DNA from: Phoronis australis
Taxonomy: Eukaryota > Animalia > Phoronida
DNA: 64,000 nt
Reading direction: 5' to 3'
NCBI GenBank assembly: GCA_002633005.1
Contig: NMRA01000887.1
Coordinates: forward strand, 45,142 to 109,141
In this document: in pieces, positions 5,420-62,469 of the stretch
How the letters are laid out: every line of letters begins with the position of its first letter
How positions within the stretch are numbered: position 1 is the first letter of the stretch
Translations under genes and position numbers: made by a program
Notes under the pieces: generated by a model
What the model saw: the letters and a program-made list of their open reading frames with translations, nothing else
What the model was told of the DNA's origin: nothing
Databases searched by the model: none

Positions 5420-7180
5420 AACACGTCGCAGATGCCTTGACTCCACTCTGTGAACTGCCTAGCGGTAAAGGTCAAGCTATTGACTGGTCAGCTGACTGCC
5501 AAACTGTTTTTGAAAAGGCCAAAGACGCCCTTGAAGAAGCTGTGCTTTTGCGTCACCCTCATTCTACCTCCCCAACAAGCGTTAGGTCGATACGTCTAAC
5601 AAGGCCATCGGTGCTCAACTGGCGCGACTTCAGGACGGTGCTTTGGTTCCTCTTGCTTTCTTCTCACGCAAACTTTCAGAAACAGAGCAGAAGTACAGCG
5701 CTTTAGACCGTGAGCTCCTGGCAGTCTATAACGCAGTTAAGCACTACATTTTCTAGAGGGCCGACCTTTCGCATTATACACTGATCACAAGCCCTTAGTG
5801 TCGGCATTGAACAGCGGCAGTGAGCGTTCCTACGTCAGGCACGGCACCTCGCTTTTATAACCGAGTTCACTACGGACATCCGATACCTTTAGAGGCAAGT
5901 TTAACGTGGTGGCTGACGCACTATTCGTTTTGACATCAACGGCATATCTAATGACCCTCGCATCTTTTCTGTTCGTGACTTCAGCGAACTGGCTCATGAC
6001 CAAGAAATGGCAGAGTATCGTACCGCTGCAACAGGCCTTGATCTGCAAGATATTCCATTTGGAACCTCGAACCTGCTTTGTGATACCTGCACTGGCACAC
6101 ACCGACCCGTGTTGCCCTCCACTTGGGTCCGTGCTGTTATTGATCGTATTCATGGTTTGTCTCACGCTGGTGCTCGCCCTACTCAGCCGGCAATCACTCA
6201 GCGTTATGTCTGGGGTGGTATGAAACGTAATACAAGGCGGTGGTGCAAAGAGTGTCATGCTTGTCAAGCTTTGAAGATGCATCGACACACGCATGTACCT
6301 TTGGTAGAACGCCCCGCTCCAGCCGCCAGCCGTTTCGCAGTTTCCACGTGGATCTTGTTGGCCCACTATACCAGCGGGCCAAGGCATGACCTATCTCTTC
6401 ACGTTCATTGACTGTTTCACCCGAGGCCATACCTCTTCCTGACGCCCAAGCTTCGTCCTGTGTGGCTGCTCTTGTCCATCATTGGATTTCCCGCTTTGGT
6501 GTGCCTGTGGACATCACGTCTGATCGCGGTGCTCAATGCAACAAGCTTTTGGGTACCACGATTCACATCAAAACTGCATACCACTCGCAGATGATAGAAC
6601 GCTTTCACCGTGCCCTAAAGGCATCTCTCAAGGCGCGCGCTACCACTGATTTGCAGAACTCCCACTGGTCTTGTTGGGGATACGTATGTCCTGGCAGGTG
6701 GATCGAGGCTGTTCTCCCGCTGAGCTTGTTTATGGGTCACCTCTTCACTTACCGGGCGAGTTTAATTTCTTCAGCCGTTCGACGCTCGTACGATGGAGCC
6801 GTACTCTATTTTCCTAAAGCATTTGCAACACACCCAACATGTACCGTGCAGCCTACACCACCTAGTTTCCATGGCGGTCGACCCAGCTGTGTACCCTTCA
6901 ACAAGGCATCTACTGGGTATGTGTATGTGCGCCACGATGCTTACCGTCATCCGCCCCAGCACCCCTACAGTGGCCCATATCGCATAAGTTCTATACGCTT
7001 GACATGAAAGGTTGCGAGCAGACGGTATCTGTTGATTGTCTCAAAGCCATCCAGTTCATGACTTCGGATGACACCTTCACATCGTGTCCCCGCGATGCCA
7101 CTACGCCATTAGTGCTACCCTGGACGTCTGTTGCTGAAGATCAACCTTTTACTGTTACTCGTTATGGTCGCGCTTGGTAG
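5420..7180 (+). mobile_element. Degenerate Ty3/Gypsy LTR retrotransposon pol (RT thumb, RNase H, integrase)
   Basis: Frameshifted segments: WSADCQTVFEKAK; FFSRKLSETEQKYSALDRELLA; YTDHKPL; NVVADAL; HGLSHAG...WCKECHACQ (integrase zinc finger); WISRFGVPVDITSDRGAQ; ERFHRALKASL; PYSGPY. Confidence 0.9.
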
Positions 7181-7386: not shown

Positions 7387-7452
7387 AATTAGTTATATTT
7401 CTATTAACTTTCAGTAAAATAATGGTCAAACAGCAATCAGCTAAGTCTGAAT

Positions 7453-14221
<6,769 letters not shown>

Positions 14222-14448
14222 CTGCAAGATAATAAGTTTCTCTGTCTATCATTTTTCAGACTGAAAGCTGCACCGATAATTTTCCAAATGACTAAATCTG
14301 CACGGGCACAGATAACGTTTACAACCGAGAGGAAATTGGAGGGTATGAAAAAACTCAGACGTGTTCTTGATAATATGTAGAATGCAAACGTTTCCGACAT
14401 ATGAACATAGTTTCAAGAGATTTTTGTTTTGCCTAATTGTAATAAATC

Positions 14449-16348
14449 CAAAGACGTTAACAAGACTATTTACCAAGGCCGCCGCCATTATTATGTCATG
14501 GACCGTGGCGACACCTAGCGGGTGTGTGTGGGCCGACGAAGTACGCAAGGCATTGACTATGGCCGATCTTAGTTTTTCAAATTCAAAATTGTCAGTGAAG
14601 TGTCTTTGTTTAAAATATTGAAAACAAAAAAACACGAGCACTGTAATGGAAAATACACATAGTCAAAATATAGAGTAAATCAAGAAAAAATTGGGCAGCA
14701 TAGGTAATATAAACTACGAGAAATACATCATAAGCAAGAGGGATACTCAGTAATAAGAGCTGAGCAGATGAAAGTAGGTTATTGAAGAATGGGCAGGTAC
14801 TGAACTTGAATGATTTTGTCTAGGGGGGTCAGGAATGTAATAAACATCAAATGGATCTGCTGAAGAAGAGATAGGAGCAAAAAAGGGGGTGCTCCTCAAC
14901 CAAAATGTTGGGGACGGAGATAGCTTTCTTCCCCGAATATTCCAGGTGTTAATATCAATTAATTAACAATTAATTATGTAAGCTTTTAACGCACAAACTT
15001 TGTTTTAAAATAAAATTGAAAAATCAGTAGACTCTCCTCCACCCAACCATCAAATGTTTCCTACGCCAATGTTCAAAAACTGCCCTCTTACGCCATCCAA
15101 ACACGGGTCCAGATCTTTCTTTCGAAAATTCACATCTTAAAGATGTTCTAGATTCAAGCAGTTGTGTTTGTGCCCATTTACATGAAACTGTCTCAAATAT
15201 CGACCCAACAGGGTCTATCCGGGATTTTTTAAAGGAGGGGGTCGGATACTGATTTTTTAAGAAAGGTGGCCCAAGTCAACAATTTGAAAATTCTGGCATT
15301 GATATCACTACAATCAAGTAACATGGGGGTCCAGACCCCTTTGATTCCCACCCTGGATCCGCCTGTACTCAACTGAGTTGGTAAATCTTTTAGGTATTTT
15401 TTTTTGTTCTTTGCTCACAGTTTTTTTTTTTCTATCATTTTATCTTTATTATGAGCTCCTCTTTGGACTTATGACGTTTTATAATAATATAACTAAAAAC
15501 TGAGCTCTTAATTCAATCAAAACATTTAACAGCATTTCTCCTTAGCTGGTCCTCACATTTCCTGTTCATCACCTATCTCTTGAATCTGCATGTATAAAGA
15601 CTGAAGTGAATTGTAGAAATGAAAGGCAAATCACAATTTAGATCCAATCATAGAATAGAAACACCAGTTATCAGTTGGTCCTAAGTCATGAAACACATGC
15701 AGGACAATTTTGGTTATAGTTTGATAGGTGGGTTCCTGACTCAAAATTCATTCTAGAACCAGTTACTACCACTGAATAACGGGCGTAATTCATTGGGAGT
15801 AACTGGTTCTAAAATCAAGTATCCATCATCAAGGCCATGTATCGGATTACCACAATTTTGCTTTTGAGTAATCAAATAAATTCTTGAAACTAAAAGGTAA
15901 GACAAGTTCAAATCACTCTGCCAACATCAAAGGGTGACTGGCAGCATATTCACAAAAATAATTCTTTGTATCACTCGTCGTATATCTCACCTGTTTTTAT
16001 CAGCGGGGAAGCGAAAGAAGTACAAGTCCCGATTTTTCAACTGACTGTTGCTGCAGCACAAAAAGCTCCTCTGATCCTCTTTTTAGGGACTGCAGACGCC
16101 ATGTCTTGTTTTGAAGTTACATGACGCAGCACTAGTCTCAGAAGCATTAACTATGGGAAATCTATGTGAACTACATAATCAGATAAAATACCTTGTCTCT
16201 GTGACCACTGACCACGAGTATCAGCCATATTCCTTTTTTCGCACACAAACCCGCTAGACGTCTCTACGGTCCATGAAACAACAATGGCCGCCAGTGGCCG
16301 TCCAATAGGATTTCGCTAGGTGAAACGTCTCTCTCTCTACGGTTTCTG
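14449..16348 (-). mobile_element. Non-autonomous P-element/THAP-type DNA transposon with 7-bp TSD
   Basis: Absent from copy B (empty site near 57300). TSD ATAAATC at 14442-14448 and 16349-16355. CA...TG ends and a ~50-bp subterminal inverted repeat (GCCATT..TCATGGACCGT..CTAGCGGG). Frameshifted THAP exon 16102-15991 (MASAVPKKRIRGAFCA/CSNSQLKNRDLYFFRFPADKNR, then a GTGAG donor). Confidence 0.8.
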
Positions 16349-19300
16349 ATAAATCTAGTTATAATGATTAACCTCTAGTCATTGATGCTGATATTTTAGC
16401 AACAAGTCCGAACATCCTATTCAAGAGGTAATTGTTTTAAACGGCGGTGAATCATCCACCTGCCTCGGCCTCTTAAAAAATACATTACAGCCACAATAAA
16501 ATAATAGAACGTGAGACCTTTAATCTACAATCAACAATACTTACTTGCTGCCACATCCGGGGTACTGTAAGTTACATAATATTCGGAATCCCCAAGCGGG
16601 AGAGGAACAGCGGCTACGTTCTCGCCAACAGGATCTTGCGGTAACTGTGAGGCGACTTGATAGGAAGCTGAAAGCAGAACAGAGAGATTGACATTGCCGC
16701 TACCTGCCAATTCACTATCAAGAAATCTGCTACTTGATCGATCAACTTCACTTTCAAGTATCCAACGTATTCGTCCATTTTCAAACGGAAGACGCTGTAA
16801 GTTAGGAGTCCGAACTCGAAGGTTTTTACTCTAGCTGTCTCGAATCGAGCAAAATAATTAGTCTAAGTCATAAAGTATTCCAGCAAAGAAAACACTTACT
16901 TTGACTTCACATTAAAGTAGAACGGAAATGCCAAGAATAATTTCTAGTTCGAGTACAAGGGTTAGACCATGGGCCCAAATTTTCACGCGGTTGTGCGGTT
17001 CCAAGGTGGTTCTGCTAAATCTTTTTTTTATCCGCTACACGGTATATGTTTCGTGCTTGACGTTCCCAGACAATGAAGATTAGGTTATTTGCTAGATATA
17101 TGTGAAATAGTGTAAAAACGGCCAGTTTTGGTGAATAAGGTTTGAGATATCCTTAATGTAAGAAACTTTGTTGAAAATTGGCCATACCTTTTTGAGCACC
17201 GTGTCGGTTTTAGTTCTTGTTTTGACAAACATTTTTCAGGTCCTTTAGACCGACAAAGAAGAATTCGTTGGCAACTGAGAATATATTAAATAGCTTTTAC
17301 TTACTGACCGAAGAGTTTTCCGTAGAACTAGTTGATTGCGTACAAAAATGAGGGATAGCTTTATATTCGACCACGTGAACAGGCGATTGCTAAGCGAACT
17401 CGATTCTTTACCGGCGTGCTATATATTAGAAAATATTGGTAGAAAATTTACGGTTTTCGTTCCCTCGACGTGGTGCGATCTTTTGCGTCGGAGCCATGAA
17501 TTATTGCGTCACCTATTGGCCAGTTTATTTTCCCCAATTCTTCAATAAACTGTACTTCTACCACGAGGCTGTGTACATGTCATAACAAATTAATCAACAA
17601 TGGTACTCAAAAGTCTAAATAATATTTTTACTTTTCATTGGTGAAATTATTCTTGCAGAAACCATCTGAAATTAATTACAAGTCATCGAGATAACAACGG
17701 GTTGAGATTACAGATCATGTTGAAATTCTCCCACAGGCCAGTTGCACGAGTTTTACCGATGAAAATCAAATAACAAAATCAATTCCATATAAGTTAAGTT
17801 TTATTATTGACCATTTTAACAAACAATTGCAGAAAACAACTGGAAAGTATTTGAAGATGCTTTTATTCAAAGCTTGAAACTACTGCCACGACGATCCCCC
17901 AAAATTTGAAAAATTTCCAGGTTTCCAGTCCAATCCCCGAGATTTCTGTTTTTAAGCGTCGGGGTTCGTGTCTTTCAGGTTAGTTAGCTGTTTTGAATGT
18001 GTGGGAGTCTGTTTTCGACTACGGGATATCTGTTTTACATCGGGGTACATGTTTAGATGGAATGGAACACCCAGAGTATAGGCCTACTAGGCAAAAACTA
18101 ACAATTTCTTCAAAGAATGCTTCTATAAAGGTAGAATAACATAGTATAAAATAAAGTACTCACTTCCTGGAGGATTCCTATAAAACAGCTAAATTTTTCC
18201 ATACTTTTAAAAACTGAACTGCTGCTGTGTCCGCCATCTTGAACTTGACAACACCCACCAAAACACCAAAAGGTGCGGTGCACCTGTGCCAAAATGTACT
18301 ATTAATTGATGAGAGCAACCCCCGTCTGATCTTAAGTGGTTGTCCAAACTCAACCCCCTTCCATAACAGTCGGAATTGTTTCAACACTGACTGAGCCCAC
18401 TCAAAATTTAGAAAAGAACTTAATTCGTGAAACTTTAAAGTCATTTGTTATAATCAACAAAAATAACTCTTCTTTTTACTTACAACAAAGGGTGGAAAGT
18501 TTAGCATATAGCATATAGCACATTAAATTTGACTTACGGAATAACCATTTGCATGGCCAAACAATGTTCTGAACAATTGTTATTGAGAATTCCGTCAAAT
18601 GAATACCAAAATCCCTTCAAAACTTTTACAGAACAAACGTTTGCAAAGCAAGTCATTTTGATGCTCTGTCGGTCGTCTTGGTAGCTAATTTGTTCCAGGC
18701 CAGTTATATTGACAATTAGATTTATCCTAGGTCCGGGTTCAGAAAGGCCACAGCTTTATGGTCCACAAACATCAACAACCGGACCACATGTTTTCATTGA
18801 AAAGTTACGTTTGAAGTAAATTTCAAAGAAACTTAGCCCACGCCTCGATGTTTTCAAGGTACATTTAGCAATCAATGTGATAAATATTGCAGGTCCCCGG
18901 GATAGTGCGACTAATTCAAAGAATGTTTCGACACAAATTAACTTCAATAAGGAAAAAACATTATTGCGATCCTGTTTGCGTTTCTTTAGAATCGATGCGG
19001 TTTTTTAGTTGCACACTTTTAACAAGTCACGTAATCTGAACTGAAGTGGCTCCAGCCGTCCAGTGACGCACGTATATTTCCCCAAAACGTTGCGGGAAAT
19101 TGAAACATTTAACTTGTGCATGAGGTGTTATCAAAAAGTAGATGATTTCATGGGAAATTTTAAAGTAGTATAAAACGAAAACAGAACGAAGATTTACAAC
19201 ACTGTAAATCAATTTTGAGAATTCACCTTGAACGTTATTCTCAAACAAAATTTGTTCACGTTGCTGACACCGTTGCTTTGGTACACATGTACAATGTAGC

Positions 19301-22300
19301 TTTCTTTCTCCTAAACTGTATTACTAAAAAAGACATGGTTCATGACCTAATTTACGGCATATTGATACAAAGTCGAGAATCAAATTCTAAATTCTTACAA
19401 CTTTCAGAAAACACATACTTTTACGAAGTTAAAAATCAATGCTTTTGTATCTGATATTAGGCTAAATACTCAGATTTCTCGGCAAGGTCCTGGCCTACTT
19501 AAACGAAACATTAAAGGCGAGGGTTGCTGTGAGTTGTCGAGCCGCTTTGTTCTTAGATACGTTCAGTTTGTGTCGATTTTAAAAAACAACTTCGCTAAAA
19601 GTGATGTGGGCAGATACCATTTTTAAACCGTGACCCGCAAGATTTCAAAAATAATGTGACGAACGCAGACCCCAACCAATTAACGATTGTCAATTACTTC
19701 TATTTACTATTCTTGCCTATGTTGTGATTTCTACGTCATCTCATGTTGTCACGGATATAACTCTTTGTTTCCGAGTGCAAAACCCACAAAAATCGGTTAA
19801 TAAGTGAACTTGTGAAACGTGAACAACAAGTGTTTGATGAAGTGTTTACAAAAACAATATGACCTGACCACGCATCACCTGATCCAGGTTAGGATTAAAC
19901 AGACATGTTTTTGCAGGCCGTAGACGGTGATACTCACGTAGGCGCTTCATAAGCTGGAAGTTTTTCGGCGAATTATGCATGACACTGATTAAACCAACTA
20001 AGTCACACTGCTATAAGTACTTTTTGCGCATATAAGAACACCTAATTATGCTGTCGATGTCTTTAATTACTTCCAACTCGAAAATATACTCACGTAATAA
20101 TACTTTTTTTCTGGCTGTCCTTCGTTGCCCAAATCAGCAACTGGCCATTTTTAACTCTGCGCGCCAGGAGAAACGACATATTTCCTGGCGCGTGCGGTGT
20201 AATGGCCAGTGACTTAGGGAGCATGGATTTTTAATTGGATGACTGACGCCAATGATGCATTAACAGGTGACAGAACGAGGATTGGTGGTAATCGTCAAAA
20301 CAGGGTTTAGAATGCGTTTAAAAATATTTGCTAAGTGTTACAAATGAAAGTCAGTCTTTTGGCCTTACTGTGGCTATTTTTATTAAGAACGATGCGTTTT
20401 TTCATGTTTATTTTAAGCCTGGTCAAATATGAAAGACAAATTCGCGTATTCTGCGCACACAACCGCGGACGGGCGTTACCCATATCTAATTAAATAATAC
20501 TAAGGCGGCTATATACCCGCCTTCCTTCACAAAAACCAACTTTAGATTTAGAACACTTGCCATAATAAAGTTAGTTTCAAAAATTTTCTTAGCCAAATAG
20601 AAAGTAATTTCATGGTTTCGACAGACCATACAGTCCGTTGTTGACTGAGATCGGGCTTTGCAAGATACATTTTCACGGCGAATCACTGATTTATGCGCCA
20701 AACATGGTTGAGAGGAACAGCACAGTCAGTTGTTGGTAAACCCACAGATCTCTTCTCATCTTAGTAAGGATCAAGTTCAGACCAATTCTATTTGCGAGAA
20801 GTGGTCGCAATCGAAAATTAACTTTTTGGACAGAACGCGGATTTGTAGCCGCTTCAAAGATATTTTACCTGCTTCATTTTAGATTAAAACTTCAGAAAAC
20901 GGATTTTAACCCGAGTCAGTTCAGTTGAATCGTAGCCCAAATAACGCTCTTTCAACAGAACGTCAACAGTATCTGCTACAGTATGCTTGTGCGTCACGAG
21001 TTAAGTTTGCACAGATGAAGAGGAAACGTGTGTTGGCGAAATCAAGGCAGTTCATATGACAAAATACAAAGTATAAAAATGAAAAATAGGAAATGCAATA
21101 AATAAAATAATAATCTCCGGCAAGATGGACAATAAAAGAAGTCACAAGAGATGTTGTAAGACAGCTACAGGATTAACTTTCAAATTTGAAGTTCTGAAAT
21201 CCAAAAAAATAAAGTGGTTTGCAGTGCATCAGAATTGGGGACCGTTGCATGGTGACGAACCTGAACGAAACTCACGAGAGACTACCAACCGTCAAGCTCT
21301 TTGTGAAAGAAGATATCAAATCTATCTTTTCAGAAAATGGTCTGGCATTTCCATTTGACGTTATGCTCTGGCGGATCTAGGATACCATAAGGGGGGGTCC
21401 AACATTTTGTCTTGGGCAATTGTGCTGTAAGAATCTATGCGATAACCCAGCCCGAAGGATATCGAGGATCGAATTTCTGGACCATCCACTAAAGAGCAAA
21501 CGGTGGACTAAAAAAAAACGGAAAATCGTTTGTGCAGGCCGTCTAAGTCGGACACTTGTGTTCGGGTTTGACCCCCCCCCCCNAAGAGGGGGAGCCGGGC
21601 CCCCTGCCCCCCTCCTAAAACCGCCTATGTTATGCACTATATATTGTACTAATAGTGTCATCCAGGTGCTTGTATTCCGTTGTTTATGAGATTGAGTTGG
21701 ACAAGGCTCTACAGGAAGGAGTTTTAACGTCACAGCAGTACCATACTCCGAGTTGGAACGCGTTGAGCGACCCGAGTCAAATGCCTAGTCTAACAAGGTT
21801 TACAAGTTTTTCAAGCATTAGTTGCTTGGTTTGACCGCAACACTGGAATCCAAAATTCCACCTAGCGTAATCATTACCACATCTGAAGGTCACAGTGCAA
21901 CTGCTCTACATACACATACAAAAATATACACATACCCTCGAGGGGACTGCTGTGTCAAATTCTATCTCAATTGTCTCAATTGCAATGAAAATGCACATCA
22001 ATTACTAGAGAAAAGTATTGAAAGGGTTGCCACAAAGCATTAGCAATTTTGCACTTTCTGTAAATCCACAATTCTTGTCACAAAAATCTACCGTCGATAT
22101 AAGCCTATAGTTACAAGTACTAGCACACGATTTATAATTTCAGTTTATGTTCTACCCGGTGACCAAGAAAAACCTATACACTTACCCAGCAAAACGACGA
22201 GCGCACTTGCGGCAATCATGTTGATAGAACTGCGTGTGGTGCCTTATCGGAGTTTTGAAGTTCTTGAGTACTGGTGAGCTTCGGGTTATATAGTCTGTCG

Positions 22301-23790
22301 CGCTGGCCAATGAGCAATCGGGAATGCGTCACCAATAGACTGCACGGCCATGCGTAGTCGTGTGTCTGACAGATGGTTCCCATACTGATAAATTTTGAAT
22401 GTTCAACTACATGTACGATATTCACACATCCCATGAATCCCATTTGTTCAAAAAATAGGCATTGGTGTTAGGGTGACGAGGGCAATCCGATTTCGGCTTC
22501 CGTACGAAACTCAGTAGTGGACAAAGTTTCTCACGTAAAACTCAGCACGTTGAATTTGTTTCTTTTTACAATATTTCATATATAAGGGACACACTTTTCA
22601 AAGCCTTTCAAAAGAGTCAGATTATCCATGACGCTAAGCAGATGCTATAGCTTGGGCGGCCCGCACGATATGGGCCAAAAAAGGGACCTTTCTGCATCAC
22701 CACCATCTAGAGAATATCAATTCGTATCATTACGTATCATCATTACGTTAATACTGCTGCGGCTGCAGTGAATAAATGTCCCGTTTGTTTTTCTTGAACT
22801 TTTACGATGTCAGTTATATTCCACGGTGCCGGTATCTAGTATTCGTTTTAGTCTTATTTTCTTCATAAATACTATGGTTCTTGAGTGTCATGCTGTCAGG
22901 GAATTTACTTTGCAGACACTGAACACGCCTTCAGTGGATTATTACGTCACAATGGTTCCTGGTACTTATTATCTTGTTTATGCAGTGGAAAAATTCTAGG
23001 GGCCGCGAGCTCCTGTAATTTAGAGAACCGTCTCTCCGGGCCACGCTTATGCCGTAAACATTTCTTGTGTAGCCTTCACTTCACACTCCGGATGAGTCGT
23101 GTAGCTAGCCCGGGTGTTGTCACAGCACTGACCAACCTCACGAAAGTCTGCGCCTTGCTAAAGGCATCAAACGTGCACACAGCTGGTTAGAATACCCAGA
23201 ACAGTAACATTTAGTTCAGTGAGGTGTTATGTAATCACTCCACAGAGCCAGAGAACACAGACACTTGCTTAGCGGCTTTGGTTTTAGACTTGATTTTACT
23301 TGATTTTGAACTCCCTAGAAAACAGCCTAAAGCGATTAAAATGTGATCTTACACAAGTTCATAAATAAATAAATTACCCAAGAATGTGTAGGAGTGATCA
23401 CATTCCAGTTTGGCGCAGTAAATCAGTTCCCAGAAAGATTTTGTGGAAGGTGGTCAGTCTGGAGGTTCAGCAAGTGAGGTTAATTAGACAAATAATTTAA
23501 CACTTTTGGAAGTTTATTTTGAAAAATGATTTACATTTATCAAATTGGTATTGTTGATTTCATGTGATGGTGTATTTTTTGTCATGTTGGCATGTCAGAA
23601 TTTTCTGAAATTTAAACCTGTTCGCACTGAAATTTTGTGCGATTGGGGCATTAGTTGTTACTGAATCGTATCTTTCCTCATGACTTTCAGGACTACTTTT
23701 GCCTGATGTTGGTGTTATAGTTGCCAGCATTTTACTTTTAACCAAATAATCATGTTACAGTCCTATTAAGGAAATTAAAAGGACTGTAAC

Positions 23791-24882
23791 ATGATTATTT
23801 TGTATAAAAAATGTCAGACAGGCATGACGATTTTCACAAACAAAGCATTTCTTACCTCTGCCGTATCTGTCAGTAAGTTATGTTTCTCAAAAGGTAAACA
23901 CAGATTTTTTTCATGCAGTAAATACATTGACCCTATTGCTTTTCATTTTGGAATAGATGTTCAATCTGATGACCCTAATACGCATTCACAATACTTTTGT
24001 TCTAATTGTTATCATTCAATTGCAAGTGCTAAACGGAGACCAGTTTCGGAAGTTACTTCAGAAAAACAACGGAATTTTGCACAATGTAATGACAAACTGT
24101 GGGGAAAAAATCAAGCAAACAAGCAATTGTCAAATTGCGAGTTATGTCAGCTTGTACAAAATTCAAAGAAGGGTGGACGCCCATTGAAAAATAGAGCAGA
24201 ACATTTGAAAACATCTGAGCTACCCTTTGAGAAAAATGTCAACATATTCCAGAGCCTTTTCTCTTCTGCGGATAACACTAAAATAACTAATTTCGTCATC
24301 AGTGAAAAGTACTCCGAAATTGAAAAGTCCAATTTTATGTGCACAATATGCCAGGGAATTTATTCAAAACAATCCGTGTTGTCAGGTTGTGGACATGTTT
24401 TTTGTTCCGAATGTTTGACTCAGGCTTTCTGCAACATGGCTTCACCTGTAATTCCCTTCCCTCTATGCCATGCTGACATACGTTATGAAAATGTGAGTGC
24501 AGTTAGTTTAAATTTTAGAACTATGCTGGAGAAATTGCAGTTAAAGTGTACAAAATGTTTTGATGAAAGTGAGTATCAGCATGCTAACATTCATGTTTGC
24601 GCCATCCCTGGGTCATCAAATGACCAATTCCAAACAGTAGCACAACCCAACTTGTCTGGGGCCCGGAATTTGACTGCCTCAGAACAGGGAACTGATAGTC
24701 AGGACTGTGCCACTACACAGTTTGTGAATGTGGGAGATCTTCTTTCAAAAAGTGACGACATGCCGCTTGAAGAGCAAGAAGAACTTATGTTTTCCAAGTT
24801 TGCCAAACGGAAATGGCAAACCAGCGATGACAATGTGTTGAAAGTCAAAACCAAAGGACAGGTATGTAAATATGTTCCATAG
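23791..24882 (+). CDS. RAG1-like N-terminal region (Chapa zinc-binding motif, RING, zinc finger) of the transposase
   Basis: 363-aa ORF with D-x4-H-x4-CxxC and a C3HC4 RING whose 7th ligand is mutated C>F (TTC). The true start is out of frame at 23811 and the exon ends at 24861. Confidence 0.8.
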   Translation: MIILYKKCQTGMTIFTNKAFLTSAVSVSKLCFSKGKHRFFSCSKYIDPIAFHFGIDVQSDDPNTHSQYFCSNCYHSIASAKRRPVSEVTSEKQRNFAQCNDKLWGKNQANKQLSNCELCQLVQNSKKGGRPLKNRAEHLKTSELPFEKNVNIFQSLFSSADNTKITNFVISEKYSEIEKSNFMCTICQGIYSKQSVLSGCGHVFCSECLTQAFCNMASPVIPFPLCHADIRYENVSAVSLNFRTMLEKLQLKCTKCFDESEYQHANIHVCAIPGSSNDQFQTVAQPNLSGARNLTASEQGTDSQDCATTQFVNVGDLLSKSDDMPLEEQEELMFSKFAKRKWQTSDDNVLKVKTKGQVCKYVP

Positions 24883-27040
24883 TGCTATGTTTTTAATTGT
24901 TTTCGTTATTTAACTATATTTGAATTATTGTACTGTAAGTAGACTTCAGCATTATGCTTCCTTTACCTGTTCAAGATTGCAGCAGACCTGTTTAAATTGA
25001 CAAATCACATGTCTTGGTTAAATTAAATGCCATCTATCTCACTTGCAGCCAATTTATTTCACTAAAGTCACCAAACCGAGAAAACGATCCTCACTTGGTC
25101 CATCTCCTCTAAAGAAGAAAAGGGCACGTGAGATTGATTCTGTTCGCCATTAATGGCAGGAGACAACGACACATCCACACAAAAGGCTTCAGAGATGAAA
25201 GTGTTGTCGAAGAAAACGCAAACGGCTATTTGTGAGAAAGCCGGCATAAGTGTGCAGTCACAAAAAATTTCTGCAAGACTTGGACTTGCTATACAAACAT
25301 ATGCTAACATTACTTGGAGCCAAAAGAGAAAAATCAAGGAGATGCTGAAAACAATTGGTATTGCGGAAGTTGCAGAAAAAAGTGTAAGAGGAGAGAGATA
25401 AAATTCTTAGCGGGGTAATGGGGAATATAGCATGTGAAAACAGAAATTTTGAGTTTCCTGACATCGAAAATCCCAACAGTGTAAATGGCGTGATTATAAA
25501 ATCAGCACCATCTGTGTATTGCGCAGATTTACCTGAGCTGGTAGGGATCTATTTAAATAAATATGATGATCACGGCCTTTTATATTGGAAAGATGGCATG
25601 CCACAGAATGAAATTTGGATTAAAATAGGAGGTGACAAAGGTGGAGGCAGTTTTAAGCTTAGCTTTCAAATCTGTAACACTAAAAATCCTAATTCGATAG
25701 AAAACACCACAGTCTTTGCTTGTTTTGAAGCTCCGGACTCTTACACTAATTTACATTTAGCTTTGGGTCTATATAAAAATCAAATTGAAGAATTGTCTAA
25801 GCTCACTTGGAAAAATAAACAGATTGTTGTTTATGGATTTGGGGACTATGATTACATGTCAAAAGTTAATGGAATTGCAGGTGCCAGTGGAACATACCCT
25901 TGTTTCCTTTGCTTGACTGATCGGCACAGTTTACAATTTAAATTGCGACAGAGAGGTAACGGTCCTAGTCGAACAATTGCGCAACTGAAACGTGATTACG
26001 AATGTTTTTTGGAAGAGTCCGGGGGTGATAAATCAAAGCAAAGTCGATACCATAATGTAGTGTATGAACCGATTTTTGAAATACCTCTACACATGTATTG
26101 TATTCCTTATTTACACATCATGTTAGGAGTGATCAAAAAACATCATGATTTGCTTGAAATTAAATGCCATGAAATTGATGAGGAGATAGCATGGGATATG
26201 GCTAAAAAGGGGAAAGAAACAGATGACACATTATATAACTTGCATGTCGAACGCCTGAAAAAAATATTATACTTCAGGACAGAAATTAGTAACCTGGAGG
26301 GTGAATTCGAGGAATTAGAGGTTGGAGAGGAGGTATTCTCTATAGCACAGTTAGCCAGAAATAACTCTAGAAAACAGCATATTCAGCGGAGACCACCTGA
26401 ACTTAAAGCACAGTTAGAAGGGGAATATCCAAATGTAAATTTATCCTATGGAGAAGGTCATGTGACTAAACACCTTGATGTTGCATTAAAGCAACTTGGA
26501 ATAGAAAGACAAGGCTATCACGGTAAATCGTTCATTGGCAATCACTGCAGCACGTACATAACTGAATCTGTATACTCAGTGCTATTCAACTCAATTGTGA
26601 ACAAAACACAGGCTCTGACAACAAACAGGCGTATAATAAACAAAGCAGTGGCAATCAGTACTAAATTTTCCAAACTGACCAGACTGTATTCTAGTGTTCA
26701 TAAAAGCCTGTCACATAGTAATTACATGTCGAATGAAGAAATAGACAATGCTCACCTGTGTATCCGAAAATATTTGAAATATTATAGATATGCATTCCCT
26801 GATTCTCGCATTTTAGTTAAGCAGCACCTACTGGAGGATCATGTCATACCATTTTTGAGAGAAACCAGATTTGGGTTAGGACTGCTTGGAGAGCAAGGTG
26901 GGGAATCCATACATAAAACATTCAATGCATTTAAAATAACATGTGCGGGAATTAGGAACCCATTACTGCAATTAACTTCAGTGATGAAAAAGCACTGGAC
27001 AAAGAATTCACCTGAGCTCAGAACAAATTACAGTCGATAA
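23811..27040 (+). mobile_element. RAG1-like / Chapaev-type DDE transposase gene with RAG1-like N-terminal zinc motifs and RING finger; one intron, three frameshifts (recent pseudogene)
   Basis: ATG 23811 gives MSDRHDDFHKQSISYLCRIC (H-x7-CRIC), then a frameshift at ~23871 to FGIDVQSDDPNTHSQYFCSNCY...W...CELC (RAG1: [22 protein letters not shown]...CDIC). RING CTIC...CGHVFCSEC...PFPLC is followed by KCTKC...H. Intron 24862-25048 (GTATGT...TTGCAG, phase 0). Further frameshifts at ~25150 and ~25388. The 540-aa core ORF follows. Confidence 0.9.
25418..27040 (+). CDS. RAG1/Transib/Chapaev-family transposase catalytic core (RNase H fold, DDE)
   Basis: Motifs aligned to RAG1 from memory: KIGGDKGGG (D, 25634); PNS; GDYDYMSKVNGIAGASGTYPCFLC (D 25844; RAG1 [25 protein letters not shown]); YLHIMLG (ALHCDIG); FIGNHC (MNGNFA); KQHLLEDHV (YFHKTLAHV); GEQGGESIH (E 26903; SEGNESGN); VMKKHW (VLKHHW). 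Confidence 0.9.
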   Translation: MGNIACENRNFEFPDIENPNSVNGVIIKSAPSVYCADLPELVGIYLNKYDDHGLLYWKDGMPQNEIWIKIGGDKGGGSFKLSFQICNTKNPNSIENTTVFACFEAPDSYTNLHLALGLYKNQIEELSKLTWKNKQIVVYGFGDYDYMSKVNGIAGASGTYPCFLCLTDRHSLQFKLRQRGNGPSRTIAQLKRDYECFLEESGGDKSKQSRYHNVVYEPIFEIPLHMYCIPYLHIMLGVIKKHHDLLEIKCHEIDEEIAWDMAKKGKETDDTLYNLHVERLKKILYFRTEISNLEGEFEELEVGEEVFSIAQLARNNSRKQHIQRRPPELKAQLEGEYPNVNLSYGEGHVTKHLDVALKQLGIERQGYHGKSFIGNHCSTYITESVYSVLFNSIVNKTQALTTNRRIINKAVAISTKFSKLTRLYSSVHKSLSHSNYMSNEEIDNAHLCIRKYLKYYRYAFPDSRILVKQHLLEDHVIPFLRETRFGLGLLGEQGGESIHKTFNAFKITCAGIRNPLLQLTSVMKKHWTKNSPELRTNYSR

Positions 27041-27195
27041 CAATTATGGTCAACTGGACTTACCCTCTTGCTCTGACCTCAGTTATTGTACGCATATCCT
27101 ATTTGTTTGAGCTAGAAAGACGTCCTAATATACATTTTGTTACTGTCTAATACTGTAATGTAAAGTTCATTTGCTGTTTGTCTGTTTGGACTGTA

Positions 27196-27201
27196 AATAA
27201 A
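27196..27201 (+). promoter_or_regulatory. Candidate polyadenylation signal of the transposase gene
   Basis: AATAAA ~155 bp after the stop codon, followed by T/G-rich sequence. Confidence 0.4.
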
Positions 27202-30200
27202 AACAATGTGGCTCCCATCACTTGTTTCATTGACTGGATTTCAGGAGAGTTGAACTTGAAATGTAGGGGGAACGCAGGCTCTACCATATTAATTTGACCT
27301 ACGCCAACTAAGTGATTTTTATTTAAACCAGCTGGAAAAAGATGATAATTTTGTTGTATGCTAACAGATTACCTAGAAAAACTTCTGTTTATGAAAAAAT
27401 TACGTTTGAAATGGCGTATTTTTTTGATGCAAGAGTCTGTCGATCAATTTCAACATTGAATTTCAACCTTAACCCCCCATATATTTTAGACTGGACCAGC
27501 CAGGAATGTTATGGCATGCTTTGGCTATAATTTAATCATGTCTGCAGTGTCAAATTGTCTCTGTCTTAAGTGCAGAAGACCTTTGAACCAATTTGGGTGT
27601 GTTATAGTAAAAGTTTGTCCAACAGATGTCGCCCCATTAGACCAGGCAACAAGCCACATGTGATTACATAACCCTGACTTGACTAAATGTGTTGCTGTGA
27701 ACAGCTGGGCTTCACAATTCACTAAGATACAAATTTGCTAACCGTCCAACTTTGGGAAGGACATTCACTCATTTATGCACTCGGTCCTATAAAATTCTTG
27801 TTCCCACACACTTTGACTTATTTAATCATCATTTGTTACTTGAAGAGCATCAAAAATTGCGCAGTCTCCAACTCCGAACCACTCATTAATTTGAGGTGAA
27901 ACTTTTAGGTATGAATTACGGGATCCGAATTGGGCGTGTGCAGAATTGGCAACGGCTGCCGCTTCACTTTGGCTATTTAAGGGTAAGTGAAACGGATATA
28001 ACTCCAAACGGGATGGTTTCATAAACAAAAATTGAACATATAACTGTGCCCCTATTTTCCTCGTTCACTATAAGACGGGTATCGTTATTTGCCCAAGTTC
28101 GCATTAACAACAATTTTCCAGGGAACTTCACTGCATGGATGATGTGCCCAAAAGATTGTTTTCTTATATTTTAAACAAAGATTTTATTTGTTTCAAAGGC
28201 AGGCCTATAATTGTTAACGTCCACAGATTTTGTCGTCTTGCCACAAAGCATGTCGAGAGCTTGTCCGTGGGTTCTCGAATTGCGCGAAACGCCACGAACT
28301 CGGGTCAGTCGAGATATTTTTTCTCTCAGGTATCATCTCGGATGCGTAAGTGGTCTGTGCACCGACCAGGGTGTTAGTATTCAGTCTATCTAAGGAGTAG
28401 GGTAGGTTACTTTATCGTTAGGCATTGGTTCCTACATCGCATTGTTCTGCGGATTATGCTGGTATTGCGTGTCTATGTGTGGAGTCTCGCCCCCGGGACA
28501 CTTTTCATTATTTGAAAGAGAACTCGGCCTCCAATGGCATAAATTTTGACAATCGAAACATACAGTACCAACAACACAAGAACAGAATCACTTCGTTTCA
28601 TAAATGAAAACTTTTTACTTCCATGTACATACATACGATGGCAACAGATTAGAGCAGGAATTCAGAAATCCCTACCAGCAACGTGCAACGAGTACTTCCG
28701 ACTGATATGCGTTCATTCAATACGGGCAGCAAAATCGAGCACAAGTAAGCGTTACTGCAATTGAAGGCTGTTCCACCGAAATCCCTATGGGAGGGAGGAG
28801 CGGTCAGTTGAAATATGCTTTCAATCGCAACACGTCCCAATGTTGAGTAGTGGAGTGATAACCTGCGATTGAATTAAAGAAGTCAGAATTTGGAAGGACC
28901 TAAGTGGTATTTTCTTTAGGGTTCTGTGACAGAAATGTTGGACGCTAACAGATATTCAATGATTTTTAGACTTTAAACACAGTGAAGGGGATGCAGTTTT
29001 AAGTGTTATAATTTTGCCTGCAGGAGAAAAACAATTATATAATAACATGAAGTAAAACCACCAACTTAAACAAAATACCCCAAAAATTGAAATCAGCGAA
29101 CATGAGAGGGAAAGACTGAAATACTTAAATTTTCCCCAAGTATTGATAGGCGTTCTGTCAGCCGTGTTTTTATCGGTAATCAGATATTTTACATGCACTT
29201 TGATTGAAATATAATGCCTAGTTACTTAGCAAAAGCCAGCATCTCATTCCTCCGTGAGATTTGCAGTAGTTATATTATAGAAAACAAATAAAAAAGTCAC
29301 TTGCGTCTTGCAACACTGTCAATACTTCTTGACTGGCAATGTGATAGTGATCCAGAAAAGAAATTACCTTCTGGATATCTGCCTTGGCTATTTGTACTTG
29401 AACGACACACAGTTTCTCGTGTTAGACAGCATTACAATGCATTGTTTGTTACCTTTAACCATAGAGCATCCATTTCTATTAAAGCATATTTTTTGTCAGC
29501 GTGAAATTTACACTTGTTACCAACAGACTGACTTTGTTTCCGAAACGACACCAAATCCCGGGGTGACAGTGAAAGACACCACAACACACACAAAATAGAC
29601 ATTTTTCATTTTTTATTTTTCCAGTTCCAGTGAGTAAGTAACAGGGGTCTGGGATCCCCTATCGTACTTTACAATCGTTAAGTGAAAATTGGCAACACAA
29701 ATATACAGTGGAATTAATTTTTATAATGACAAAGAGAAAAACAGCAATATTACATAAAGTGACTGTGTTGTATACACTTCTGAGAAAGGAATGTAAAAAA
29801 ACCTTTGCATACTATTTTTCCAAAATAGAGTTTCTCAAACAATCTTTATATTGCAGGATTTTCTCTTCATCTATCTTACTTGAGAATTCATACAGGAAAG
29901 CCTATAGCTTGAGCATCAGATTATTACATTTACGAAATTTCAACATCTAAAGCAATACAATGTTGAACTAATGGTAATTTCATCAATGGTGGGCACTGCT
30001 TTCGAAGAGGAAAAACTTTGACAAGGCAATAAAAAAACATTTTTTATACTTTTATCAAGAAAAACACAAAAATTACACTCAAGGTTGAAAGCTGAATTTT
30101 TTTGCAAACAGTTTGATATAAATATCATTAATATCGGTTCAGTCACGGCCAGTTAGCAGCTGAAAGTTTATCCCCTAACTATGGATAGCAAGAATTTACT

Positions 30201-32664: not shown

Positions 32665-34454
32665 CAATATTGAAAGTCCATCTTATGTCTGCTAACCACG
32701 CAAGCGCCACTAACCCTTGATGTGTCATTGAAGTAGTGCGAGAGGTGAATACGGATCACATTATTGCATAGCCGTATTGCAGTCGATTGATTCAACGCGT
32801 ATGGGATCAGTAAATGATAATGTGTCAATTTAGCCGTGTGTTAAAAAGCGAGACATTTAGATGATGAGGTGGAATGGCGGAAAAATTAAAAAATGGGACA
32901 GTCCGCAAAGAGCGGGGCAATTTGGATGTCAACAACAGAAAGCTTTGGCCGTTTTTACAAGGTAAACTTTTCGTTTCTTTAACTTTATTTCACGGGCGTA
33001 GTCAAGTACTACAGATAAAGTAGGGAATATGTAAGTTCTTTCCGTAAAACAAATTAACACGAATTCGACACCCAAAAATGTCTCGCTGAAAAACTCCAGG
33101 TATACAAAACGGGACATTTTAAGTACAGTTTGGCAACGTTCCTCCTACAAGAATGGCCGAAAGACCCATATAGACTATTTCTTGGGGAGAAATCAGTTAT
33201 CTGACATGACAGCATCTGTAATCGCATTTCTAAAAGTGTTACCATGGCAGTTGATCATCCACCGGGTTCTCAAGGTTCCCATCAAGAGGTCGACACACTT
33301 CTTACCCTCCACTTAGCCAACTCAAATGGCAATGCATTGATCAGGGCTTATGACAGTCTTTATTGTAATCGTTTAGTGGCTGTTTGAAAGCGTTGTGATA
33401 ACTATTTCTAGTTCATTTTGATTAAAGAAAATATTTTAAAAAGCATTGTTTAGTAGTCAATATCATGAAAAGACTCTTTGGAAATCGTTTCCATGCTTCC
33501 TTGATAAAACACAAATTTAGGGGCCAGGTCTTTTTGCTGAAGCATCTTTCCTGTCTGCAATTTCTATAGCTCGTTATACTACACTAGCTGCAGTCCTAAT
33601 TATCACTCAATGGTTTTTGACACTTTTTGGTATTCTAAAGTTTTAGTATTATCAGGTATTTTCCAAAATGCTTATTTCCGCTATTATCCATTTGGCGCTC
33701 AGTGTAACCCTATAGTTTAATTTAAACAAGGAGAGAGTTCAGTGGACTCGAAAGTATTATGGAAATACAAGAATTCGCCAGTCGCCAACCGAAAATGGCC
33801 ACGAACTGCAAACTAAGTACGTGATCACAACACCTTCCTTATTGAAATTCTTGATTCTACGAAACTTTAACAAGATTTAACCGGGAACTTCATTATCAAA
33901 TATTTTGTCACGACGTGACTTTAATCAGACAATTCAGTAGAAAAAAAACAAGTTTAAAATAAACAATATTTAATGAAGCTTCAACAACTAATATGTATTA
34001 TAACTGGACCATTGTGGATGTGGTACCCAAACTAATATTATTGAGTCAGAGTCCAGCTTATCATTTCACACAGTTCGTGCACAGTGCACTTGTGGTCAGT
34101 GCCTTCCTGTTAGCATCCGTCTTTGAACACCTTCATCTTGCGGTCCCCTGACTTTGTCCGCTGAATTTCACTGTCGGCACAAACGTTCCACTGCGTCTAA
34201 ACAGCTTCTAGACACGTCTACGCTTTATCACGGCTGGCCCTCGACTGCCGCACGGCCCAGGTCGAACATTTGAATGCACTCGGCCAACACAACAGTTCAT
34301 TTACATATAAATGTCCCGACAACAATCACTGAAAACTGACGCCGCCCACGTAACAGACTGTGTTCACAATTGTCTGTTCGTTACATATATCACAGTTTCA
34401 ACAGAATTAAGTGGTTGAGACTTCTGGGTCTGGCGCGCACAACCCGGAGTAGTG

Positions 34455-35275
34455 GCTTTTGTCACAGGCCATTTAATAACAAGTAACTTCTATTTTAATC
34501 ATATGGGATCTTTTATTGTGGTACCTCGAACGTATGAGCTGGTTCCTTCATGGGCGTCGTCGAACACTTTCCAGAGGACAATATTAGCCTGTCATGTGTC
34601 GTTCGGTGTTCGAAGCGGTTCTATTGCTCGTTTTAAATCAGTTTTAGCTGGTACCTAGAATATCTAGTCTACCTCGAATTTTCAATGGCACACGGTGACT
34701 GACAATTTGGGGGGTGGTTCTGGCGGGCAGTACCAAGAGTGCATTTTGTCTGCCATGGGCATTAAGTGACCAGTGACATGAATTAGATCACGTGAAATTG
34801 ATTTTTGTGGTACTTCCAACGTATGAGCAAGCTTATTTTGGGGGATTGTTTTTGGATTTCTGGTGGACCCTTACCAGAATGCAATTTGTTTTGTCATGGG
34901 TCATTCGGTGTTCACTGCGGTACTGTTTTTTTAAATCAGTTTTAGTTGGTACCTCGAATGTCTAATTTAGCTCACATCTTCAAGGGCATACAGTGGTTGA
35001 CATTTTGGGGGTTTTCTGGCGGGCACAACTCAGAGTGTATTTTGTCTGTCATGAGGCATTTAGTGACCTGATATACATGTATGTTGAATCATATGAAATT
35101 GTTTTTTGTAGTACTTCGAATGTATGAGCTGGGGTTCCTTCTTGGGTTTCTGGCGGACCCTTTCCAGAGAGCAATTTGTCTGTCATGTGTCATTTGGCGT
35201 TCAGTGCGGTACTAGTGTCCGTTTTAAATCGGTTTTGGTCGGTACCTAGAATATCTAATGTAGCTCATTTTTGGT
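34455..35275. repeat. Diverged tandem repeat, ~290-bp unit, about 3 copies
   Basis: Recurring blocks GTAC(C/T)TC(G/C)AA(C/T)GTATGAGC, TGTCATG...TTC..GCGGT and TTTTAAATC(A/G)GTTTT..GGTACCT at ~290-300-bp spacing. Confidence 0.8.
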
Positions 35276-41000: not shown

Positions 41001-44000
41001 TTTAAAATTTTCATTTAAGATTTGTTGAAGATTTCATATTTCACATAGTTTTGACATTTATACACAATGCTTGCTCTGTCGCGTAATTTAACAGCTTGTT
41101 CAACTCTCACAAGCAGGTTTAAGCAACATGCGTGCGTATCATGGATGAAAGACCCTCTCGGGTAAAACTTCGAGATTTCAAGTTCAGACTTGATGTCGTC
41201 AAATGCACTGCAGTAGGGTTCCACAATCCTTTATGAGCGTCATTATACTCGAGCAAACAACTAGACAATTGTTTTAAGTTGGTTTTCACTAAGTAGAGGT
41301 GGCAATGCCAAAGATATTTTAGAGTTATATTTCGAGTGAAAATGATTGCACTCTGTACCTATGTTCGTAAGGCTAATTTCTATCAAGTGTTCCGTGATCC
41401 GCAAATTTTCGCGTTGCCAGCGGAGCTCGCGATCACCCTTGCTTTCACTAGCGTGTATGTTGTTTACAGAAAAGACCCCCCCCCNCCCCCGTCAGGCTCT
41501 ACATGTACTTACGCCTCGTGCTTCCACATCGTTTGATGTAAGTATTTTGACAAGGGAAAACCTCAAGCACTAAATTGTATAACGTTCTGTCATAAGACTG
41601 CAGTTGACTTCTTGTGGTCACGTGGTTGCGTACTCCATTTGGTATTGCGGAGTATGGCTTCACGTTGAAAAAAGCGCGGGCGCCTTCGGCCTGAATATAG
41701 TGGAGAGTGTAGTATTAGAAGTAATAACACAGAGGTCGACGTGAATAACGGGCATTCTTGTAGGTTGTATCAAACGCATACATGTAGAAACAAAGACCCT
41801 TTTAGATACGTTGAAACTTTTTATGTACCCTGCAAGATAAAAGCATACTGCCGGCGGGCCTCTTTTTGAAGATGAATATATATTTAATAACATATAGATC
41901 TTTGAAACAGAATAACGTCCTGTTAACCTCATCACTCGTCAAAAACTTGGAGCAGCATTGAAGCTTCACCCTATGTCTGCTACACAAGAGCGACTAACCC
42001 TTAATGTATCACTGAAACAGGTTATTAGGGGCGGATCCAGGATTTTGAGTTAGGAGGGCCAGGGCAGAGTATTAACCAGAATTTTGCTGATCAGGCATTT
42101 GCATCACCGAACTCCCAAATGGAATCTGGGCGAGTTTGGGGCTATGGTCCCTTTGCCCTCCTACCCCTAAATCCGCCACTGGGTATAGTACCCTTTCCAG
42201 TAAACAGTGCCTTTCTACGAACACAGCATGGGTAAGAGCGCTTTTGCGAGTGTAGATGAGCTTTATTCAGTGTAGCAACTCTGTAAGATATCTCTTTTCC
42301 TTTACAAGGTAACGAATTATTTGTAATGATCTAAGACAATTTTTTGTGATGGAACGTGGCTTCAAAGCTGCCTTCAGGTTATGTGGGAACTTCTCGACAA
42401 GTCATTGTATTCAGACAAGTATCTACAAAACTCTAGAATTTAATTCAACAAATGTATATGAAACTTCCTGCCTGAATGTAGCAAGACTCGTCCAGTCTGA
42501 TTTTTTACTATTATACCAATCTGACTTTGATTGGGTGATATGACGCCTTATTTTTATTATATATACATTTAACAAACAACATATCGAAACAACAACATCA
42601 AAAACATCACCAAATTTTGTTTAACATATAAAGTCCAGATGAATACCCAGAACATTGTAACAGTTTTCTAAATCATCATCTTGTTTTTGTTTTATGCAAC
42701 TTTTGAGTTATTTACAAAATTATAAATCTCTAATACTTTGATATCCCTTCTTGAAAAGTGTATGCTTAAAAAACAATTCTTTGAAGCGTTTTCGGAAAAT
42801 AGTTTTATAACATAGTATTGCAACTTTTCGCATGAACCTGATGAAGTAATGGTGTTCTGGACATTATTCTAGTGTCCTACATAACTGTAATTCCGGTATA
42901 AAACCAATGCCACTGCATGCTCATCGTGGGAAACTGAACGGAATTCACTTACGAAGTACTCATGAATCGTGCTCATAGAGTAAGTATTTGCCCAAAGTCC
43001 ACGACTCCTGGCGCTGTTGTAGGCATGAGTTAGCCGTTGGCGATAACCGCGTATGGCGAAGGTGGCACCCAGGATTTCAACACCATGTGCAAACTCATGG
43101 ATGGCGATATCCTCGTCGCTGCAATGCAAAATAATTACAAGTTTTATTTCAACAGTCTGTATGTGTTGAGGCAGATGTGTTTCATCTAACTGCAAAAGGT
43201 GCCCCCATCATCGCTGGCCAATACGCTGTTTGATCTAAATTGGGTACGGTGTCATTAAAACTAATTCATAAGTAGGAAGATACCATGTAAATCTATTTTG
43301 CCAGTGTGGCAAAGAATGCGTAAATTGTTTTGCAACAAGATAATCGACTAAAAGCGGGCGAGCACTACATTGCGAATTATTTTAGCAACCCTGTTCAACG
43401 ATTAGCTGAGATGCAGTTAAAAGCTGGACAGCGTAATATTTTTCAATTTTAGAAGCCGGGCAGAAATTGGTGAAAGTATGCCAGGCAATGCTTTTCATGG
43501 AAGGTGATCTTTAACTGCCACGGTTTAAGCCTGTTGAAACAAATGGAACTCTGCACAATGAGCCTATTCGACAATCTTTACATTACTAGAGGGCGCGCGT
43601 TTACTAGTGGTGATAGATTAAGCAGCCTCGATTTCGCGAGCCCTTTAAATACAAGGTTAAATGGCTTGCAGTCGGGCCAACTGAATCTGAGATCGCATCA
43701 AAAGGAAGATTCTACGAGGGGAAGTAAGCATGACATACAAAGGTAAGGTGGTTTGTGATTATTTTAACGATTATTCCATGTTTCCAATACTGATACCTGT
43801 TAATTGAGGTACTAGCCGATGTCGACATCGCGGCAGTCGCCAGTCCGGTTAATCATTGTTTGTTGTGATGACTGATGTGTGTTACGATACTTAACATAGC
43901 ACTCGGAATCTTTTCATATATCAAAGCAGTATTATTATTGTTTGGAATGATTTCTAACAGGTTTGTCGGTCACAGTTACATCAATTAATGCTGAATGTTT

Positions 44001-60725: not shown

Positions 60726-61941
60726 CCCCCCCCCCCTCCCTATCATATCAGTCGGAATTGTTTCAACCCTGACTCTGACCCCACTCAAACTTAAGAAACG
60801 AACTCATCAACTCTGAATTCCTGAAACTTCAAATAAGCATTTGCGCGGCCAAACAATGATCTGAACATTTGTTTTTGAGAGTTCCGTTAAATCAATACAA
60901 AAATCCCTTCAAAGTAGTAACGCAAAGAACAATTACGCTTAGAAAACATGACAACCGTTTCCAAAGCAACTCATTTTGATGCTCTCTTAGTGTAGGCCTA
61001 GTTGTATTAGTAGCTAATTTGTTCCAGGCCAGTTCGATTTTCCCAGGTCTGGGTTCACCAGAGGCCACATAGCTTGATGGTCCGTGAACGTCAACAACCG
61101 GCCCACGTGTTTTCACGGAAAATTTACGTTTGAAGTAAATTTCAAAGAAACTTAGCCCACACCTCGATTATTTCAAGGTACATGTTGCAATCAATGTGAT
61201 AAATATTGCAGGTCCCCGGGATAGTACGACTATTTCAGAAAATGTTTAGACATAAATTAAGTTCAGAAATGAAAAAAAAAACGTTGCAGCCCGTCTGTGT
61301 TTCTTTAGAGTCGATGTGGTTTTTAGTAGCACATTTTAACAAGTCACGTAATCTAACCTGAAGTGGCTCAAGCCGTCCAGTGGCGCAGGCGTACTTCTCT
61401 AAAACGTTGTTGGGAATTGTTTTTAAAACGTTTCACTTTTGCATCAAGGGTTGTCAAAAAGTAGGATTTATATGATATTTATGGGAAAATTTAAAGTTGT
61501 ATCAAACGAAAACGAAACGATGATTTGCAACACTGCAACAAAGCCTTTGAGAGTTTACCTTGAACGTTTATGTCAAACGAAATCTGGTCGTGTTGATGAC
61601 ACCTTTGCTTTGTTGTATAATGCAACTTTCTTTCCCCTAAATTTCACTAAAAAAGACATGGTTCAAGACCTATTGCTACAAAATCGAGAATCTGTTTCTA
61701 CATTCTTAGTACTTTCAGAAAAAAAATATGATTTTACGAACTTAAAAATCAATCCTTTTGTAGATATTTGGCGCAGATTTCTCGTCGAGGTCCTGGCCTA
61801 CTTACATGTAGCGTTAGACCTCACGCCTGAAAATGAATGACAGCCCAGAATTTAAACGGTCCAATTCAATAATTACTTTTAAACTTAATATTAAAAAGTG
61901 GCTGTAATTTACCTAGCCTTTTTATACCCTACTTGCCTTAA

Positions 61942-62423
61942 AGGCGAAGGCAACCTTTTTTCATGTCACTTTTTAGCAAAAATAAGGTTCGTTGATTATC
62001 CCAGACACATTTTTCACTTAATTACAGCTTTTCGTAATTTGATTAATTTCTCGTCCTCTACTCCGGAAGTGACGTTTTTGGGAGGCAAGAGATTCGCGCC
62101 AATTTCTTTTCATTATAGTCAGACTGTGAGAGCTGTCGAGTCAGCAACAGCGTGGCATGTTGACTGACTCGTAAGCAAAAGCAAACGACGACCGAACTTA
62201 TCACAACCGAGGTAAAACAATGACTGACTCGACTGCTCTCACAGTCAAACTATATGAAAAGAAATTGGCGCGAAATTCTTGCCTCCCAAAACGTCACTTA
62301 AGGAGTAGACGACGAGTAATTGATTGAATTACGAAAAGCAGTAAATAAGTGAAAAATGTGTCTGGTATAATCTACGAACCTTATTTTTGCTAAAAATGAC
62401 ATGAAAAAAGGTTGCCTTCGCCT
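61942..62423. mobile_element. Kolobok-like MITE with long TIRs and TTAA TSD
   Basis: TTAA|AGGCGAAGGCAACCTTTTTTCATG ... CATGAAAAAAGGTTGCCTTCGCCT|TTAA with ~200-bp inverted arms. Confidence 0.85.
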
Positions 62424-62469
62424 TTAATGGTGTCATTTTTCCCATTGCCATCAATACTCTCACTGTTTA

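Follow-up and report, generated by a model that had tools for sequence, protein, structure and literature searches.

A 64,000-nucleotide stretch of the Phoronis australis genome (the window) contains the remains of a 4.5-kb transposon of the RING-bearing Chapaev group, the intact ancestor of which very probably moved by a cut-and-paste mechanism, with one RAG1-like transposase that would have bound one short and one long end. The element runs from 23178 to 27709 (4532 bp), beyond the coordinates of a preliminary description of this DNA, which had proposed a spliced RAG1-like transposase gene at 23811..27040. The gene is located as claimed, and its homology to RAG1 is borne out both in the order of its domains and in the predicted fold of its core. 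The architecture is already known, and the residual interest of the element lies in its long and short ends and in their flipped polarity.

The coding region lies on the plus strand. When the proposed intron (24862-25048) is removed and an X is placed at each of three frameshifts, a single reading of 1014 codons without stops is obtained, close to the ~1000 residues first suggested, and all of the motifs named in the preliminary description are recovered in the reconstructed protein. The frameshifts had been placed at ~23871, ~25150 and ~25388; in tblastn alignments of intact relatives the frame switches at ~23871-75, 25150 and 25389. Residue 354 of two of these relatives (P0053 and P0055; residue 358 of P0057) maps to both 24861 and 25046-49, so that, judging from protein homology, the intron would be of the GT..AG type and in phase 0. 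Few RNA reads were obtained (166, 94 and 43, in each case from roughly one fifth of one of three runs, together with two contigs) and none crossed the 24862-25048 junction, which at this depth is evidence neither for nor against splicing.

Exon 1 (23811..24861, frameshift at ~23871) begins with an ATG, and its first, short frame runs through H-x7-CRIC to a stop. A second frame, open to 24861, carries D-x4-H-x4-CxxC, W..CxxC, a GGRP motif, a RING (about 24337-24470) and a CxxC..H finger (24547-24600), the exon encoding Chapa (NZD-like) zinc fingers ahead of the RING. The RING passes its Pfam cut-off (PF00097, 24.5 bits vs 21), with a phenylalanine at one ligand position that is cysteine in the relatives. 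Immediately 5' of the start codon is an inverted repeat with 34-nt arms (23736..23808). The start of exon 2 (25049..25389, frameshifts at ~25150 and 25389) encodes basic nonamer-binding-like and dimerisation-like segments, as assigned by tblastn and the family profile, and is followed by the catalytic core (25388..27040), which contains a long helical insertion. The catalytic residues are encoded at 25634 (D), 25844 (D) and 26903 (E), with a CxxC at 25901 and an HxxxxH at 26825, and the triad is unchanged across 46 aligned sequences. The triad spacings are 69 and 352 residues. The D-to-E distance compares with a family median of 345 but is longer than the 253 of RAG1 and than the range of Repbase Chapaev, which counts against the Chapaev reading. 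Matches to the core reach an E value of 2e-146 among relatives, and the reading is therefore not due to chance.

The core matches the Pfam family DUF1280 with 67.5 bits against a curated cut-off of 25 (E 1.7e-18). As DUF1280 is equated with the Chapaev transposases, and grouped with RAG1, in the available part of PMC3985635, the Chapaev-type core that had been suggested from its motifs stands. In Chapaev, an N-terminal Chapa domain is followed by RING and C2H2 in two subgroups, an order that the reconstructed protein shows; the Pfam family PF12560 matched 17 of 23 aligned family members at E 0.01, and the P. australis fragment itself gave no match to it. The further suggestion, that this might be a novel sister lineage with RAG1 architecture, did not survive comparison with the literature. 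Kapitonov and Koonin (2015; PMC4411706) aligned seven Chapaev families with Chapa, RING and C2H2 motifs against RAG1 (Chapaev-1_BF, -2_BF, -1_NV, -2_NV, -4_HM, -6_HM and -7_HM in their Additional file 5) and already used this arrangement in an argument about the origin of the RAG1 N-terminus. The preliminary description had said that its novelty would be lost if both halves grouped within a described Chapaev family, and this is largely the case: the proposed lineage is the already described RING-bearing Chapaev, and its architecture adds nothing beyond the 2015 publication. A structure of the RAG1 NZD has since been solved and compared with Chapa domains, according to the accessible part of bioRxiv 2026.01.24.700457.

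With the RING-bearing Chapaev the element shares the order Chapa, GGRP, RING and C2H2, the core with its CxxC and HxxxxH, and CAC..GTG ends; the 4-bp target duplications of the group are seen in its relatives. On sequence grounds it would appear to be a new family within that group, the nearest protein found being 44% identical. Protein searches returned 52 and 10 relatives, the best of which are intact single frames of ~1030 residues with the same architecture and 36-44% identity in the core, and those named come from Nucella, Branchiostoma, Ephydatia, Amphiura, Acanthaster, Plakobranchus and Hydractinia. At E 1e-30 the family comprises 1074 representatives after clustering at 50%. A rapidly built core tree covered 88 relatives, without an outgroup and without two loci identical to stored proteins. 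In it the P. australis protein falls in a group of nine rows (SH-aLRT 97); seven of these, P. australis included, have both Chapa and RING, and the remaining two are truncated. The RING is patchy more widely: 18 of the 33 sequences with a Chapa start in the set P0001-P0197 carry it, and it is absent from an 18-row clade that holds the Nucella proteins. None of 49 pattern matches in viral contigs was a relative. Among prokaryote genomes one of 13 pattern matches was, on a 2.3-kb contig in a MAG, and this is probably host contamination.

A profile search of the 64-kb window gave no second piece of Chapaev. Other features of the window include decayed integrase fragments of an LTR retrotransposon at 5833-7004 (Integrase_H2C2, E 3e-12) and a long, interrupted segmental duplication (7409-19501 and 37972-61804, ~71-87% identity), within which similar exon-like minus-strand frames with HExxH, at 12424-12771 and 42872-43207, have no Pfam match. 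About three diverged tandem units of ~295 bp each lie at 34390-35271. A 1.1-kb tandem duplication (58513-60724, 96%) surrounds a single N and is possibly an assembly artefact, and a self-complementary sequence of ~490 bp (61938-62427, 82% identity) is possibly a MITE.

The relationship to RAG1 was also seen with profiles. An N-terminal profile of 23 sequences, made up of 22 mostly full-length relatives and the P. australis N-terminal frame, matched mouse RAG1 over residues 98-383 (E 1.5e-36), as well as the NZD (PDB 21wb) and the RING (1rmd). A second family profile continued beyond this as far as residue 491, taking in the nonamer-binding and dimerisation region. The P. australis N-terminus by itself matched only generic RINGs. 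For the core, a model with a pLDDT of 93 was superposed on known structures, as the preliminary description had suggested, and gave Z scores of 26.2 with RAG1, 24.5 with BbRAGL and 24.2 with HzTransib (6pqx, in the hairpin-forming state); the next match, the P element, scored 11.4. The superposition covers 414 residues of RAG1 (rmsd 3.6) and 360 of HzTransib, with identities in the structure alignments of 13-18%. The core is thus predicted to adopt the RAG1/Transib fold, an RNase H core with a zinc-binding insertion. In the family profile the second aspartate is paired with Asp708, a near-invariant aspartate with Glu662 and the glutamate with Glu962, in segments that are weak and below threshold. 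The structural comparison covers the core; a single-sequence model of full-length P0053 had a pLDDT of 38. Searching with the core as a single sequence, phmmer found no PDB chain at E 10.

Could the element nonetheless represent an undescribed sister lineage of RAG1/RAG1L, distinct from Chapaev and nearer to RAG than Transib is? The N-terminal profile does match RAG1 before any other RING protein, more residues of the core model align with RAG1 than with HzTransib, and the neighbours of the protein in the ESM Atlas include RAG1 clusters (0.92-0.95). The difference in Z between RAG1 and HzTransib, however, is just 2, and the low core identity to RAG1 contrasts with over 30% for TransibSU (PMC4411706); nor did the Pfam families of the RAG1 core match at E values up to 1. 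No RAG2L gene was found inside the ends, where there is no room for one because only 669 bp, without a long ORF, separate the stop codon from the 3' end of the element. With relatives that make 4-bp rather than 5-bp duplications, and with the architecture in print for Chapaev, a separate sister lineage seems improbable. The element shares domain order, core fold and an alignable N-terminus with RAG1 and RAG1L/ProtoRAG (6cg0, 9jpu, 21wb, 1rmd, 6b40), but its Chapaev core carries a helical insertion of ~100 residues and ends without the C-terminal CCGHC tail that is a RAGL feature, and the inner motif of its ends is a different one. With Transib (HzTransib, Transib5, Transib2_AG) it shares the core fold and a single gene, and some Transib families also have 12/23-like ends; In Transib, by contrast, Chapa and RING are missing, the duplications are canonically 5 bp long and the nonamer is A-rich.

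The P. australis copy is decayed and dead. That it might instead be a domesticated host gene, and not a transposon copy, could be argued from the intact triad and from low-level RNA reads that come mostly from one strand. The three frameshifts, the lost RING ligand and the retained transposon ends speak against such a gene, as does the fact that just 13 of the 303 reads from the three runs are at least 99% alike to the locus, from which it would seem likely that most derive from other copies or alleles; we regard domestication as very improbable. In run X5 reads cover the bins from 23102 through 27907 and all but vanish in the flanking bins, in keeping with the extent of the element. Just upstream of it, at 22142-22570, a separate repeat is marked by RNA reads that align at 85-90% identity, have loose ends and skip 71 nt.

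The boundaries of the transposon were located with a two-part end model, trained on 19 relatives' ends, none of them from the window. Over both strands of the 64 kb, position 23178 on the plus strand ranked first and 27709 on the minus strand second, and the two face inward with the gene between them. The 5' terminal box (23178..23189, plus strand) starts with an exact CAC and belongs to a long-type end, with a score that was reached by 1 of 2000 shuffles. The 3' terminal box (27698..27709, minus strand) has one mismatch, its second base departing from the CAC consensus, and belongs to a short-type end; its score alone was reached by 49 of 2000 shuffles, and both scores jointly by none of 2000. 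Independently of the model, a conserved inner block of ~30 bp is common to the two ends (local alignment score 46; none of 5000 random pairs scored as high). It starts at position 31 from the terminus on the 5' side (23208..23238, plus strand) and at position 21 on the 3' side (27660..27689, minus strand), an offset of 10 bp. No target-site duplication was recoverable at 23178-27709. A plain scan for CAC..GTG inverted repeats, which admits only symmetric ends with an intact CAC, gave no convincing pair among 22,785.

The relatives' ends come from a metagenome scan that matched 111 related stretches, of which the 80 best were retrieved. An all-against-all comparison of the 46 longest yielded multi-copy families of ~4.4-5.1 kb, including L062-L067 and L039-L056 with ~98-99.9% DNA identity. 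The ends of the multi-copy families read CAC..GTG with a terminal repeat of ~12 bp. Of the 17 copies with both ends, 14 are flanked by a 4-bp target duplication (12 of the 15 distinct sites) and none by one of 5 bp; the duplication is absent in L029, L031, L043, L072 and L076. The available part of PMC4079192 gives CAC..GTG ends and 3-4 bp duplications as hallmarks of Chapaev. Among ends selected by copy boundaries or by terminal-box score, a CAYTTAR-like inner motif starts at position 20-21 in ten of 14 5' ends (one more at 24, three without the motif) and at 31-32 in eight of nine 3' ends (the other at 37). A cross-offset test that makes no use of the motif peaked at +11, a value reached by 0 of 1000 shuffles; this figure is no probability, as the motif pattern and the test window were set after the ends had been viewed, and the test overstates independence because many of the ends (six of the 14 at the 5' side, seven of the nine at the 3' side) belong to a single clade within a single contig set. 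Further Chapaev-family ends, with the inner motif at 31-32, lie at L021:9768, L039:600 and L011:361, and at L064:8349-8596 two element ends are ~250 bp apart.

An offset of 10-12 bp is also found in five complete relatives (L066, L041, L075, L068 and L029) that have ~30% protein identity and diverged spacers. The offsets in L003, L004, L011 and L029 were first chosen by a model that permitted only positions 20, 21, 31 and 32, and on that account are weaker evidence than those taken from multi-copy or duplication boundaries. The polarity varies: the long end is 5' and the short end 3' in P. australis, L003 and L004, whereas most relatives are the opposite way round. The short end is 5' in a clade of 20 rows, and L003 and L004 sit on different branches.

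How such ends might work can be outlined by analogy with RAG1 and Transib. A dimer of the transposase would cleave at the CAC boxes with its DDE site. The A/T-rich inner motif may be read by the basic segment, the counterpart and homologue of the RAG1 nonamer-binding domain. An offset of one helical turn would keep both motifs on one face of the DNA and make the ends non-equivalent, and the enzyme, much as RAG does, would then favour one long and one short end. Chapa and RING would likely be regulatory, the RING possibly acting as an E3 ligase as it does in RAG1. The positions are close to those of the RSS, in which a spacer of 12 or 23 after the heptamer makes the nonamer begin at position 20 or 31. 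One-turn end asymmetry is reported for some Transib families in the available text of PMC1131882; ends with a 10-bp asymmetry are described for PflRAGL-A in the accessible part of bioRxiv 2023.08.20.553239.

The same ends could quite possibly be explained without any RAG-like pairing rule, the element being a Chapaev in which long and short ends are due to neutral inheritance or convergence. The CAYTTAR-like inner motif differs from the RSS nonamer, some of the relatives' ends deviate, the polarity flips between P. australis, L003 and L004 and the 20-row clade, and RAGL-B is expected, in the available portion of PMC7204232, to be indifferent to asymmetry. Such an account must, however, accommodate the persistence of the 10-12 bp offset in P. 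australis and five complete relatives whose spacers have diverged; and if pairing were required, a flip would be expected to leave one end long and the other short.

We tentatively put forward, as a reading that is possible though rather doubtful, that Chapaev transposases obey a 12/23-like rule of their own, with the inner motif at 20-21 at one end and at 31-32 at the other in either polarity, as in the geometry of RSS12 and RSS23. The one-turn asymmetry of the ends, the nonamer-binding-like domain and the Chapa-RING-zinc-finger N-terminus would then all predate RAG2 and go back to an ancestor shared by RAG, Transib and Chapaev. In the PMC papers and bioRxiv preprints searched, no description of long and short bipartite ends was found for Chapaev, and the string 'asymmetr' does not occur in the available part of PMC4079192. 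Opinion is divided on whether the 12/23 rule arose from a 'Transib seed' (PMC8355894) or by inheritance from RAGL-A (bioRxiv 2023.08.20.553239), as set out in the accessible parts of both; within those parts, the former discusses asymmetry without the word 'Chapa' and the latter does not contain 'Chapaev'. If a group as distant as Chapaev does keep the one-turn asymmetry, the trait would have a greater age than either scenario calls for and would not depend on RAG2. Should this 12/23-like reading of Chapaev be true, the RING-bearing Chapaev would provide a living model, with a single gene, of the recombinase as it was before RAG2, and the multi-copy families L062-L067 and L039-L056 offer young natural substrates on which the pairing of the ends could be tested directly.
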